Below, in pieces: positions 19,746 through 26,612 of a stretch of DNA of 38,833 nucleotides (positions are counted from its first letter, which is position 1; each line of letters opens with the position of its first letter). The stretch comes from a bacterium (GTDB lineage Bacteria > SZUA-182 > DTGQ01 > JAFGSM01), in the NCBI GenBank assembly GCA_049472355.1, contig JBLIRP010000028.1, positions 1 through 38,833 on the forward strand. The letters are read 5' to 3'. A program made the position numbers and the translations under genes. Under the pieces are notes generated by a model. It was not told the origin of the DNA and ran no database searches. It was given only the letters and a program-made list of their open reading frames with translations.

Positions 19746-20843
19746 ATGAGAGGAATGCTCGTGTTGGAGGATGGCAGTCATTTCGAGGGGATATCCATCG
19801 GCGCCGAGGGGGAGCGGGTGGGGGAGGTGGTGCTGAACACCGCTGTGGTGGGCTACCAGGAGATCATGACCGACCCGGCGAATGCCGGGAAACTTCTCGT
19901 GCTGACCTATCCCCTGATCGGCAACTACGGCATCGCGAAAAAATTTTCCGATTCCCGCCGGTCGTGGATCGAGGGGGTGGTGATCCGGGAGGAGAGCAGG
20001 ATCACCTCCAACTGGCAGGCGGAGGCCCCCCTGTCCGATTTTCTCGCCCGGGAATCCATGGTCTGCCTCAGCGAGGTGGATACCCGGACCATTGCCGTGG
20101 CCGTCAGGGACAGCGGTGAGATGCTGGGGATCGTGTCGAGCGGCAACGCAATCCCCAAGGAGTTGCTGGGAAGGCTCAAGGAACTGAAGAAAAAGAGGGA
20201 GAACCGGTACATCCGGGAGATCTCCGTTCCGCGGATCACTGAACAGCACCGGAACCCCTCGGGATTGAAGATCGGCATACTGGACATGGGAATCCTGAAC
20301 GATTTCATGGAGCAGTTGAAGAGGCTCGGTGCGTCGATCACCCTTATACCGTATAATGCCGATGCCTACGAGATTATCTCCCTTGATCTTGACGGTTTGA
20401 TTCTATCGAATGGCCCGGAGGACGACCGGGCAATTCCCGACATTGCCGAGACGGTGAAACAACTGGTGGGAAAGATGCCGCTCCTGGGCATCTCCCTTGG
20501 CCATGAAATAATCGGCCTTGCCCTGGGGGGGACCAGGAAGCGGTTGAAGGTGGGACACCACGGCGTGAATTATCCGGTCAGGACTCCGGACTCCTACAAG
20601 GGCGAGATAACGGTGCAGAACCATTCATGGGTGCTTGAGGAAAAATCGTTGAACACAAAGGATGACATCGTCATTACCCGGTACAATGTCAACGACACTA
20701 CCATCGAGGAGATGGAGTGCAGGGGGCGTGCGATCATCGGGACCCAGTACTACCCGGTGAGCCCCGGGTTCGACGAGGTGCACGAGGTATTCATTCGGTT
20801 CATGGAGATGATTGACAAAAAGGCACCTGATCTCAGGAAATGA
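19746..20843 (+). CDS. carA: Carbamoyl-phosphate synthase small subunit with a degenerate glutaminase site
   Basis: LVLEDGS, GEVVLNT, GYQEIMTDP, TYPLIGNYG, VDTR, LSNGP, GHHGVNYPV and TVQNH are present. The catalytic motifs read GISLGHE and QYYPV instead of GICLGHQ and HPE. Confidence 0.93.
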   Translation: MRGMLVLEDGSHFEGISIGAEGERVGEVVLNTAVVGYQEIMTDPANAGKLLVLTYPLIGNYGIAKKFSDSRRSWIEGVVIREESRITSNWQAEAPLSDFLARESMVCLSEVDTRTIAVAVRDSGEMLGIVSSGNAIPKELLGRLKELKKKRENRYIREISVPRITEQHRNPSGLKIGILDMGILNDFMEQLKRLGASITLIPYNADAYEIISLDLDGLILSNGPEDDRAIPDIAETVKQLVGKMPLLGISLGHEIIGLALGGTRKRLKVGHHGVNYPVRTPDSYKGEITVQNHSWVLEEKSLNTKDDIVITRYNVNDTTIEEMECRGRAIIGTQYYPVSPGFDEVHEVFIRFMEMIDKKAPDLRK

Positions 20844-20852
20844 GCATACACC

Positions 20853-23342: not shown

Positions 23343-26300
23343 ATGCCAAAACGGAATGACATCAAACGCATACTTATGATCGGTTCGGGTCCCATCGTGA
23401 TCGGGCAGGCGTGTGAATTCGATTATTCAGGGTCACAGGCATGCAAGGCCCTGCGGGAGGAGGGGTACCACACCATCCTCGTGAACAGCAACCCCGCCAC
23501 CATCATGACCGACCCGGGCATGGCCGATGCCACCTACATCGAGCCCCTCACCGTGGAGGCGGTGACGGAGATCATCGCAAAGGAGCGGCCGGATGCCATA
23601 CTGCCCACACTGGGCGGTCAGACCGGCCTGAACCTCGCCTTTTTCCTCATGAAGGAGGGGATACTTGACCGGTACGGCGTGGAATCGATCGGTGCGAATG
23701 TGGATGCCATTGCCCGGGCGGAGGACAGGGACCTGTTCAAGAAGGCCATGCAGGAGATCGGGGTGGATACCCCGAAAAGCGGGATTGCCACAAGTATCGA
23801 GGAGGGGATGCGGATCGGCCTGGACATCGGCTTCCCCCTCATCCTGAGGCCCGCTTACTGCCTGGGGGGAAGCGGCGGGTCCACCGCTTACAACCGGGAG
23901 GAGCTCGAGGAGTCGCTGGCAAAGGGGCTGGAGATAAGCCCGGTGAAGCAGGTGCTGGTGGAGCAATCCGTGCTCGGGTGGAAAGAGATCGAGTTCGAGG
24001 TGATGAGGGACTGCGCGGACAACGTGATCATGATCACCTCCATGGAAAATGTGGATCCCATGGGGGTCCACACCGGGGACAGCATCGTGGTGGCCCCATC
24101 CCAAAGCCTCACCCGGGAGGAGTATGGACAGTTCGTGAACCTCTCCAAACGGATCATACGAAAGATCGGGATCACGGGAGGCGGCGCCAATATCCAGTTC
24201 GGGCAGAATCCCGAGAACGGACACATCGTCATCATCGAGGTCAATCCGAGGCTCTCCAGAAGCTCCGCACTCGCGTCCAAGGCCACCGGGTTCCCCATCG
24301 CACGGGTGGCCACGAAGCTCGCGGTCGGCCTCACCCTGCCCGAGGTGCAGAACGAGATCACCGGGAAGACCACGTCGTTCTTCGAGCCCACCGTGGATTA
24401 CTGCGTGTTCAAGATCTGCAGGTTCACCTTCGAGAAGTTTCCCAAGGCGCAGAGGGTCCTGAACACCTCGATGAAGGCGGTCGGGGAAGCCATGTCCATC
24501 GGCAGGAACTTCAAGGAGGCCCTGCAGAAGGGGATCCGGTCCACGGAGACCGGGCGGTTCGGACTGGGTGCGGACGGAAAGGACAAGATCACCGACGAGA
24601 TGCTGCGCTCACCCTCCGCAGACCTGGTGGAACAGATAAAACAGAAGATACGCATCCCTACGGACGAGCGGCTCTTCTACATCCGGTACGGGCTGAAACT
24701 GGGGCTCGGCGTGGATGAGATCTACGATCTTTCGCGGATCGACCGGTGGTTCATCGACAATATGAAGCAGATCGTGGAGCTTGAGGAGGAGATCGGGCGG
24801 TTCAGGGGAAAGGACGCCAGGGCCCCCCTGAGCGTGCCGCAGGACCTTTTGGAAAAGGCAAAGCGATGGGGCTTTTCGGATGTGCAGCTCGCCTTCCTCC
24901 TCAACACTACGGAGAAGAAGGTGCGCTCCCTGCGCAGAAGGCACGGGATCACCGCGGTCTACAAGCTGGTGGACACCTGCGCCGGGGAATTCACCGCCCG
25001 GCAGCCCTACTTCTACTCCACCTACGAGACCATGAACGAGAGCATAGTGTCGCAGGGCACCAAGGTCTGCATCCTCGGGGGAGGCCCCAACCGGATCGGC
25101 CAGGGGATCGAGTTCGACTACTGCTGCTGCCACGCATCCTATGCCCTCAAGGAGGAGGGCCTGGAGAGCATCATGGTGAACTGCAATCCGGAGACGGTGT
25201 CCACCGACTACGATACCTCGAACAAGCTCTATTTCGAGCCCCTGACCGTGGAGGATGTGCTCAGCATCGTGGATCTGGAGCGGCCCATGGGGGTGATCGT
25301 GCAGTTCGGCGGCCAGACCCCCCTCAACATCTGCGTGCCCCTGGAGCGGGCCGGGGTGACCATCCTGGGAACGAGCCCTGATTCCATCGACCGGGCTGAG
25401 GACCGGAAGCGCTTTCAGCAGATGATCAAGAAGCTGAGCCTGGTTCAGCCGGATAATGCCACCGCCACCTCCTTTGAAGGGGCAAAGCGGGCGGCGAACA
25501 AGATCGGGTATCCGGTGGTGGTCCGCCCCTCGTACGTGCTCGGGGGCAGGGCCATGGAGATCGTGTACACGGACGAGGACCTTGCAGGGTTCATGGAGAA
25601 GGCGGTGGAGGCCTCACCCGAACACTCCATCCTCATCGACAAGTTCCTGGAGGATGCCCTGGAGGTGGATGTGGATGCCATCTCCGACGGGGAGCAGTGC
25701 GTGATCGGGGGGATCATGGAGCACATCGAGGAGGCGGGTATCCACTCCGGGGACAGCGCCATGGTGCTTCCGCCCTATAGCCTGAGCAAGGATCTGGTCA
25801 AAGTGATCAAGGAGAACACCTACGCCATGGCAAGGGAGCTGAACATAAAGGGGCTTTTGAACATCCAGTACGCGGTCAAGAACAACGTGGTGTACGTGCT
25901 GGAGGTCAATCCCCGGGCGAGCAGGACGGTCCCCTTCGTGAGCAAGGCCATCGGCATACCCCTGGCCAAGCTCGCCACAAAGATCATGCTGGGGAAGACC
26001 CTCAAGGAACTGGGATTCACCGAGGAGAAGGAGATACCCTTTTTTGCGGTGAAGGAGTCGGTGTTTCCCTTCATCAAGTTCCCGGGGGTCGATGCGATCC
26101 TGGGACCGGAGATGCGCTCCACCGGCGAGGTCATGGGGATCGACACCACCTTCGGCACCGCCTATGCGAAGAGCCAGATTGCCGCCGGCCAGCGCCTGCC
26201 CACCAAGGGGACCGTTTTCATCAGCGTGAAGAACCAGGACAAGCGCTCCATTGTGTTCATCGCCAAGAAGCTCGCCGACCTGGGCTTCAAGATCCTGGCA

Positions 26301-26612
26301 ACCTCAGGCACCGCGGACATACTCACCCGAAACGACCTGGAGGTGGAGACCATCCCCAGGCTCTACGAGGGCAGGCCGAACATCATCGACTATATCAAGG
26401 ACGACAAGGTGGACCTCATCATCAACACCCCCTCGGGCAAGGCGACCAAGGAGGACGAGACCAGGATCAGGTCCCACGCCATCCTCTACAGCGTGCCCCT
26501 CATCACTACCATTGCCGGGGCCGAGGCCTCGGTGAACGGCATCGAGAACATCATCAGGAAGCCGAAGTTCTCCGTGAAATCCATCCAGGAGTATCACAAG
26601 GAGGTCCGGTAG
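23343..26612 (+). CDS. carB: Carbamoyl-phosphate synthase large subunit
   Basis: MPKR...[81 protein letters not shown] and an MGS-like C-terminus. Confidence 0.98.

Follow-up and report, generated by a model that had tools for sequence, protein, structure and literature searches.

A ptsP gene between the subunit genes of a glutaminase-dead carbamoyl-phosphate synthetase: a real gene order, found in one genus

The stretch of DNA analyzed here, hereafter the window, comprises 38,833 nucleotides of a bacterial contig (JBLIRP010000028.1, positions 1 to 38,833, assembly GCA_049472355.1; GTDB lineage Bacteria; SZUA-182; DTGQ01; JAFGSM01) and carries a gene of the phosphotransferase system (PTS) between the two subunit genes of a carbamoyl-phosphate synthetase (CPS). 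NCBIfam labels the three genes CPS small subunit, phosphoenolpyruvate (PEP)-protein phosphotransferase, and CPS large subunit. They are carAd (19746..20843), whose product was assigned to a conserved glutaminase-dead clade using TIGR01368 and an alignment with Escherichia coli CarA; ptsP (20853..23114), which encodes a 753-residue GAF-domain enzyme I of the EI-Ntr type, as judged by Pfam and the catalytic residues; and carBd (23343..26612), which encodes a full-length large subunit. All three are on the forward strand; the suffix d marks the glutaminase-dead type and its partner. The gene order is real, the CPS variant is real and apparently unpublished, and the three genes do not form a conserved three-gene system. 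With moderate confidence, we read ptsP as a local, one-off lodger in the operon of a second CPS and not as a working part of it, such that two distinct functions probably sit on a single transcript. We favor a local insertion over a new regulatory system because the arrangement occurs in one genus only and each of its parts is widespread without the other.

The product of carAd scored 315.6 bits against TIGR01368, above the cut-off. Alignment with E. coli CarA placed Ser250 at Cys269 and Tyr336 at His353, while the position of Glu355 was either deleted or occupied by Val, depending on the alignment; the Cys-His-Glu triad of the small subunit is absent. Further changes were Gly243 to Glu225, Gln273 to Glu254, and Gly313 to Ser294. 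In E. coli CarA, Cys269 and His353 are required for glutamine hydrolysis, according to the available portion of a review (PMC6245113). Among 121 clade proteins, consisting of the query and its best 120 homologs (57-93% identity), the Cys was missing in 120, the His was missing in all, and Glu occupied the Gly243 position in all. The clade was split from canonical CarA at a support of 100 and spans at least five phylum-level groups; databases annotate its members as 'glutamine-hydrolyzing'. The initial annotation of the locus had called this subunit glutaminase-dead, and that description holds: the triad is lost and the loss is conserved throughout the clade.

Loss of the triad has not been accompanied by decay. 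Parts of the glutamine pocket are retained (QNH, SNGP), and a structure model (pLDDT 85.7) superimposed on E. coli CarA with TM scores of 0.87-0.88 (0.88 for 1jdb) and matched the fold of human CPS1 (E 3e-28). Three genomes share the gene order: G000, the genome of the window; G001, which is 93% identical; and G004, identical at 63% for carA, 66% for ptsP, and 85% for carB. Relative to G001, dN/dS was 0.138 for carAd and 0.053 for carBd, with efp (0.049) and tolB (0.079) as comparison. By these measures, CarAd is under purifying selection and its fold is kept.

The large subunit scored 1475 bits against TIGR01369. All 22 ATP-grasp catalytic positions examined were as in E. coli, and both sites are intact. 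We take C232, A251, and A314 as the ammonia-gate numbering of E. coli CarB and likewise assume the role of R265. Thr232 and Val265 occurred in 9 of 9 carAd-linked CarB proteins, and Cys232 with Arg or Gln265 in 14 of 14 others. By spacing, Cys232 corresponds to Cys648, the gate residue of CPS1 (PMC4655335, as far as its available text goes). On these alignments, the ammonia-gate residue of CarBd has changed together with CarAd. In the locus of G710 (L338), the carB that follows carAd aligned as two segments (residues 1-44 and 27-445), possibly reflecting a frameshift or insertion. A third CarB type was also seen, at L213:1501-4710 in G002 and L214 in G005; the two are 83% identical to each other and approximately 50-53% to the other two types, and no carA was seen adjoining in G002.

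CarAd and CarBd thus resemble E. coli CarA-CarB (1jdb; 1c30 is the C269S mutant) in the division into two subunits, the fold of the small subunit, and a CarB that is 55% identical with its catalytic positions kept. They differ in that the whole triad has been lost naturally, CarB carries C232T and R265V, the pair is a second copy beside a canonical CarAB, and, in this genus, a gene is inserted between the subunits. The other point of comparison is vertebrate CPS I (human CPS1, 5DOU/5DOT), which likewise retains an inactive glutaminase domain with a Cys-to-Ser exchange; in human CPS1, Ser294 stands where the catalytic Cys would be, and free ammonia is the substrate (PMC4655335, available text). 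If ammonia use holds for CarAd-CarBd, the pair would be an analog that works like CPS I. Unlike CPS I, it is encoded by separate reading frames with ptsP between them rather than as a single fused polypeptide, its His and Glu are lost as well, and its gate Cys is replaced, whereas CPS1 keeps Cys648.

Based on these comparisons, carAd-carBd would be the genome's second CPS, in which CarAd serves as a structural subunit and the complex, like animal CPS I, probably uses free ammonia. Under ammonia-rich conditions, it would make carbamoyl phosphate from free ammonia, bicarbonate, and two ATP, alongside a canonical CarAB that uses glutamine. The genes of the latter are on two other contigs: C1 ends with a canonical carA, its triad intact, followed by the start of carB, and C29 begins with the C-terminal half of a carB, at 87% identity to canonical CarB from G004. 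A second, more distant carA is also present in G001, G004, G007, and G012, and the copies read in G000 have an intact triad. The presence of such copies, together with the retained pocket motifs and the view that bacterial CPSs prefer glutamine (PMC6245113, in part), would suit a different role for CarAd, that of a scaffold, an inhibitor, or a ligand-binding pseudo-enzyme, with CarBd obtaining glutamine-derived ammonia through pairing with canonical CarA, and ptsP a bystander. We give this little credence: position 232 and Arg265 have changed in every carAd-linked CarB, canonical carA is paired with a carB of its own in G000, G001, and G004, and carAd was joined to carBd in 47 of 47 loci lacking ptsP.

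The product of ptsP has a GAF domain at approximately residues 21-159 (Pfam GAF, E 3e-13) and three PEP-utilizer domains. The GAF domain matched the PtsP GAF structure 3ci6 (E 3e-25) and aligned well with the GAF domains of PtsP from E. coli, Acinetobacter, and Sinorhizobium. All 10 E. coli PtsI catalytic residues examined are kept, including His371 (=H189) and Cys683 (=C502), and the same 10 are kept in 23 of 23 clade members. Relative to G001, dN/dS was 0.151 for ptsP and 0.104 for its GAF part. The earlier statement that PtsP retains its GAF domain, phospho-His, and catalytic Cys is borne out, and the protein is, on its residues and domains, an intact EI-Ntr-type enzyme. It shares with proteobacterial EI-Ntr its GAF-plus-enzyme I architecture, its location apart from ptsN and the HPr gene, and the presence of NPr/HPr and PtsN in the genome. 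It differs in being only 30-34% identical to proteobacterial PtsP, in falling below the PRK11061 cut-off (488 vs 583), and in belonging to a clade of its own (support 100), in which Planctomycetota and Fibrobacterota proteins stand at 53-57%. In a quick, unrooted tree of the enzyme I core, all GAF-bearing enzymes lay on one side of the branch from PtsI (support 95), a topology that would fit a shared origin with proteobacterial PtsP; midpoint rooting of the same tree grouped the PtsP clade with PtsI instead. PMC4848567, in its available text, shows that glutamine inhibits EI-Ntr autophosphorylation in Caulobacter and cites the same effect for E. coli and S. meliloti, and control by glutamine and 2-oxoglutarate has been shown in proteobacteria (PMC4848567, PMC13104625, both in part). 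We infer by analogy that this control may extend to the present clade.

Non-proteobacterial GAF-enzyme I proteins form a large clade (L005-L029, L045, L047; P0124-P0243) in Planctomycetota, Fibrobacterota, and Verrucomicrobiota, with members 53-59% alike and variable gene contexts. The portion of a 2008 paper that was available describes ptsP as exclusive to Proteobacteria, and that of a 2026 review mentions PTS-Ntr homologs in Planctomycetales.

The distribution of the gene order carries the argument. A ptsP gene lay between carAd and carBd in 3 of 43 carAd genomes, namely G000, G001, and G004, all of one genus. The 40 genomes outside the genus comprised G007 and G012 from the same class, 7 from a 401-genome sample, 3 from one phylum, 21 from 251 sampled genomes of a large phylum, and 7 from another phylum; a further phylum yielded no new carAd genome (1/20). 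In all 40, carB directly followed carAd, as it did in all 7 metagenome contigs among the matches listed that extend downstream of carAd. In that metagenome scan, 71 of the 80 matches listed were canonical carA, two truncated carAd loci were left out, and L087 was nearly identical to G163. The linkage counts were made without the contexts of a few close relatives (P0005-P0008 for CarAd; P0125, P0126, and P0131 for PtsP). The initial annotation had proposed a coupled three-gene system in which ptsP adjacency would track the dead carA, and had named in advance, as one outcome that would tell against it, an adjacency that is not conserved or does not correlate with dead carA. That is the outcome found: adjacency occurs in none of the 40 genomes outside the genus.

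The two parts also occur apart. Using PtsP as the query, no GAF-bearing enzyme I was found in 39 of the 40 non-genus carAd genomes, including all 38 outside the class; the sole genome with one, G012, has its ptsP on a different contig. Other enzyme I matches in these genomes began at residue 163 or later (30-46% identity), G429 gave no enzyme I match, and G705 gave a GAF-only match in a 410-residue frame. In the other direction, no carAd was found in 28 of 28 other genomes with the same PtsP clade, of which 20 are informative because 8 gave no carA match at all. In these 20, the best carA match scored at most 373 bits, compared with at least 437 for the dead clade, and the top one read was canonical. 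Proteins of this PtsP clade (44-60%) occur in Planctomycetota, Fibrobacterota, Verrucomicrobiota, and others in varied neighborhoods, and neither carA nor carB stood beside ptsP in these loci, examined over as much as 6 kb on each side.

Near relatives point the same way. In the congener G002 (63% complete), ptsP is at the same place, 2.8 kb behind efp-epmA (ybgF-efp-epmA), with an RNase-H-like gene on one side and a gene for an AMP-binding enzyme on the other; carAd was not found in this assembly, and its only CarB match was canonical. In the sister genus, G005 has a 118-residue C-terminal ptsP remnant (L301:2890-3243, 67% identical), probably a pseudogene, and no carAd was found; the remnant is divergent from a phoB-phoR-like pair. 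The carAd genes of the genus form one clade (support 99), as do its ptsP genes (support 98), and the three linked cases thus count as one event. Across the class, 4 of 20 genomes had carAd and a full GAF-PtsP, one had carAd only, and one a full PtsP only; these counts stem from two lineages and are not independent. A species tree of the genus from 15 ribosomal proteins grouped G002 with G004 at 76/73, falling to 55/60 with four added genes (site counts 33/33/28). Loss of carAd and carBd in G002, rather than a later assembly of the locus, is weakly favored, as the species tree does not fix the order of events. A tree with 100/100 for G000 with G004 was rejected because it contained non-orthologous CarB copies.

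Such a distribution bears on whether PtsP controls the CPS directly. PtsP might bind, or transfer phosphate to, the dead-glutaminase CPS and so take over nitrogen sensing from the lost glutamine site. In one such scheme, unphosphorylated PtsP with glutamine bound would permit ammonia use, and phospho-PtsP would block it under nitrogen limitation. The insertion of ptsP between the subunit genes, its 9-nt and 2-nt gaps, and its intact GAF domain and catalytic residues would fit such control, and there are precedents. King and O'Brian in 2001 are said, by the title of their paper, to have found a direct interaction between EI-Ntr and aspartokinase. In alpha-proteobacteria, ptsP adjoins an amino-acid biosynthesis gene, lysC, an adjacency given in the available part of a review (PMC13104625) and also found here. 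The same review describes a direct PtsP-SpoT interaction in Caulobacter, a role apart from PtsN. An operon neighbor of ptsP can thus be its partner, given the lysC-ptsP adjacency and the reported interaction. Unlike lysC-ptsP, which is described as general in alpha-proteobacteria, carAd-ptsP-carBd was found in a single genus. We regard direct control as improbable: the CPS is kept without PtsP in 39 of the 40 non-genus genomes, PtsP is kept without the CPS in all 28 other genomes of its clade and in G002, and an HPr acceptor is present in the genome.

Nor do the linked proteins carry an obvious mark of contact. No CarB position in the alignment separated the 3 ptsP-linked from the 6 other CarBd proteins, only 3 CarAd positions were clade-specific, all of them hydrophobic or aromatic exchanges, and most of 13 positions in linked PtsP were either common to P0126, the sister of the unlinked G002 PtsP, or at variable sites. 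Thus, there is no convincing ptsP-linked signature in the CarAd or PtsP sequences. Complex prediction using CarAd (57-row alignment) and PtsP residues 1-432 (85-row alignment) scored 0.00 in 2 of 2 runs, a result that weighs neither way. A young link specific to the genus, in which the GAF ligand and the phosphorylation state of PtsP would gate an ammonia-dependent CPS much as N-acetylglutamate acts on CPS I, is similarly doubtful.

The initial annotation also noted that the window has no ptsO, ptsN, or HPr gene. This is so: none was found among the window's reading frames and the family matches are on other contigs. The genome as a whole does have them, on contig C59, in the order rpoN-hpf-ptsN-hprK-EIIA(Man)-GH57-ptsH-ptsI. 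Family searches placed both HPr (E 4e-24) and EIIA (E 1e-37) on C59; rpoN, hpf, hprK, EIIA-Man, and GH57 were named from their translations rather than by family scan. PtsP therefore has a phospho-acceptor, and the idea that it lacks one is ruled out by this cluster. A weak second HPr match on C89 gave no Pfam family on rescan. Coexistence of EI-R with PtsP is known from Geobacter (PMC2405797, in part), and ptsP is usually encoded apart from ptsN and ptsO (PMC13104625, in part). Between EIIA-Man and ptsH, a GH57-like gene of approximately 720 residues (C59 4886-7051) is found in G000, G004, and G005.

Under the lodger reading, PtsP would autophosphorylate from PEP under GAF control, with glutamine inhibiting and 2-oxoglutarate stimulating as in proteobacteria, and pass its phosphate to the genome's single clear HPr and on to PtsN or EIIA-Man of C59, beside the GAF-less PtsI. 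The ptsP gene would have come between carAd and carBd once, in the ancestor of the genus, and would probably be co-transcribed with them; having lodged there once, it would share their transcript.

The spacing of the genes is compatible with a single transcript. The carAd-ptsP spacer (20844..20852, from the carAd stop to the ptsP ATG) is 9 nt, as the initial annotation stated along with the common orientation; it is also 9 nt in G001 and approximately 70 nt in G004. The ptsP-carBd spacer (23115..23342) is 228 nt here, 98 nt in G001, and 2 nt in G004. In the window it contains two 74-nt repeat copies (23127-23200 and 23265-23338; 89% identity), and a diverged copy is in the same gap of G001. 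The earlier remark that repeats fill this gap is accurate, although they have no bearing on the operon because the repeat is a dispersed intergenic element of approximately 140 nt, possibly MITE- or REP-like, often in tandem, with its core in 63 copies on 44 contigs. For the same reason, the repeats were ruled out as a mark of ptsP insertion. A further copy is at 31527-31595 of the window. Directly 5' of carAd is a tandem repeat with an 18-nt period (19623..19712, forward), 82% identical to G001 and without another match in its own genome; it is a possible promoter or regulatory site.

Searches for transcription signals gave chance-level results: the sigma-70 and terminator scan found 4 promoter-like sites (2.8 expected) and 6 terminator-like sites (5.9 expected), none of the latter within the two gaps. 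The sigma-54 scan gave no hit in 13 regions, a result that is uninformative because the four glnA/amtB/glt controls among them were missed too. Contigs assembled from RNA runs (4/6 runs; best shares 0.14 and 0.13) cover short pieces of carAd, ptsP, and carBd; among the pieces listed, none spans either junction, and such contigs cannot show transcription.

Several observations weigh against ptsP as a lodger. The order has outlasted 37% divergence in carA and a shift in GC3 from 0.78 to 0.39, and a short gap is kept on at least one side in each linked genome, including the 2 nt before carB in G004. Chance insertions into operons are often purged. The alpha-proteobacterial precedent described above, the 4 of 20 class genomes with both parts (two lineages only), and the incompleteness of G002 count similarly. 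On the CPS side, ammonia use is itself inferred, and E. coli CPS requires ammonia at very high levels (PMC6245113, in part).

Some of these points would suit selected co-regulation without contact, in which ptsP stays in the operon because one nitrogen regime calls for both an ammonia-type CPS and a glutamine/2-oxoglutarate sensor, and any effect on CPS is indirect, through HPr and PtsN or transcription. Besides the short-gapped order of the three linked genomes and the joint occurrence in the class, where G012 has the parts unlinked, an elaborate cluster on contig C62 (L345) is in its favor. This cluster encodes an 899-residue Amt-GAF-histidine kinase fusion (3655-6351, reverse) and a sigma-54 response regulator (2212-3648, reverse), a pair that looks like an ammonium-sensing two-component system, together with GlnA, AmtB, P-II, and, as named from translations, probable glutamate synthase subunits and NAD synthetase; Amt frames of 900-930 residues are also found in G001, G002, and G004. 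We nonetheless consider co-regulation rather unlikely. G007 (95% complete) has carAd and no GAF-PtsP was found in it, G002 has ptsP without carAd, no GAF-PtsP was found in the 38 carAd genomes outside the class, and a scan that also missed its controls gave no sigma-54 site upstream.

Insertion between carA and carB is not peculiar to ptsP. In G004, two genes, one for a membrane protein and one sulfatase-like, also split the canonical carA-carB (L306:917-8822), and the same two genes follow carA in G003 (L197:7607-12066). Insertions between carA and carB have therefore occurred more than once in the genus.

Around the locus, a TIGR03546/TIGR03545 pair (16957-19250, forward) lies between epmA and carAd in G000 and not in G004; the end of TIGR03545 is present in G001 too. 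Convergent with carBd is a gene for a 1105-residue fused MFS/spermidine-synthase protein with C-terminal TPR repeats (26800-30117, reverse), of lower GC (0.48-0.50). Further on, a mla-type operon includes a gene for an MlaF-like ABC ATPase whose C-terminal part is a fused GGDEF-like domain (32725-33978, reverse; Pfam E 7e-9).

A literature search, with most subscription papers outside its coverage, gave, among the hits listed, no relevant paper on carAd-ptsP-carBd, dead CarA, or this PtsP clade, and none linking PTS-Ntr with CPS; a 2026 review of PTS-Ntr has no occurrence of 'carbamoyl'. If PtsP does modulate the CPS, the locus would represent a direct link from PTS-Ntr to the supply of arginine and pyrimidine precursors; otherwise, it illustrates how a gene can lodge in an operon. 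The insertion is thus mainly a cheap test case, and the dead-CarA lineage is the more interesting finding. Glutamine is held to be the physiological nitrogen donor of all bacterial CPSs (PMC6245113, in the text available). Spread over at least five phylum-level groups, a conserved dead CarA whose CarB has changed along with it would be a testable exception to that rule.

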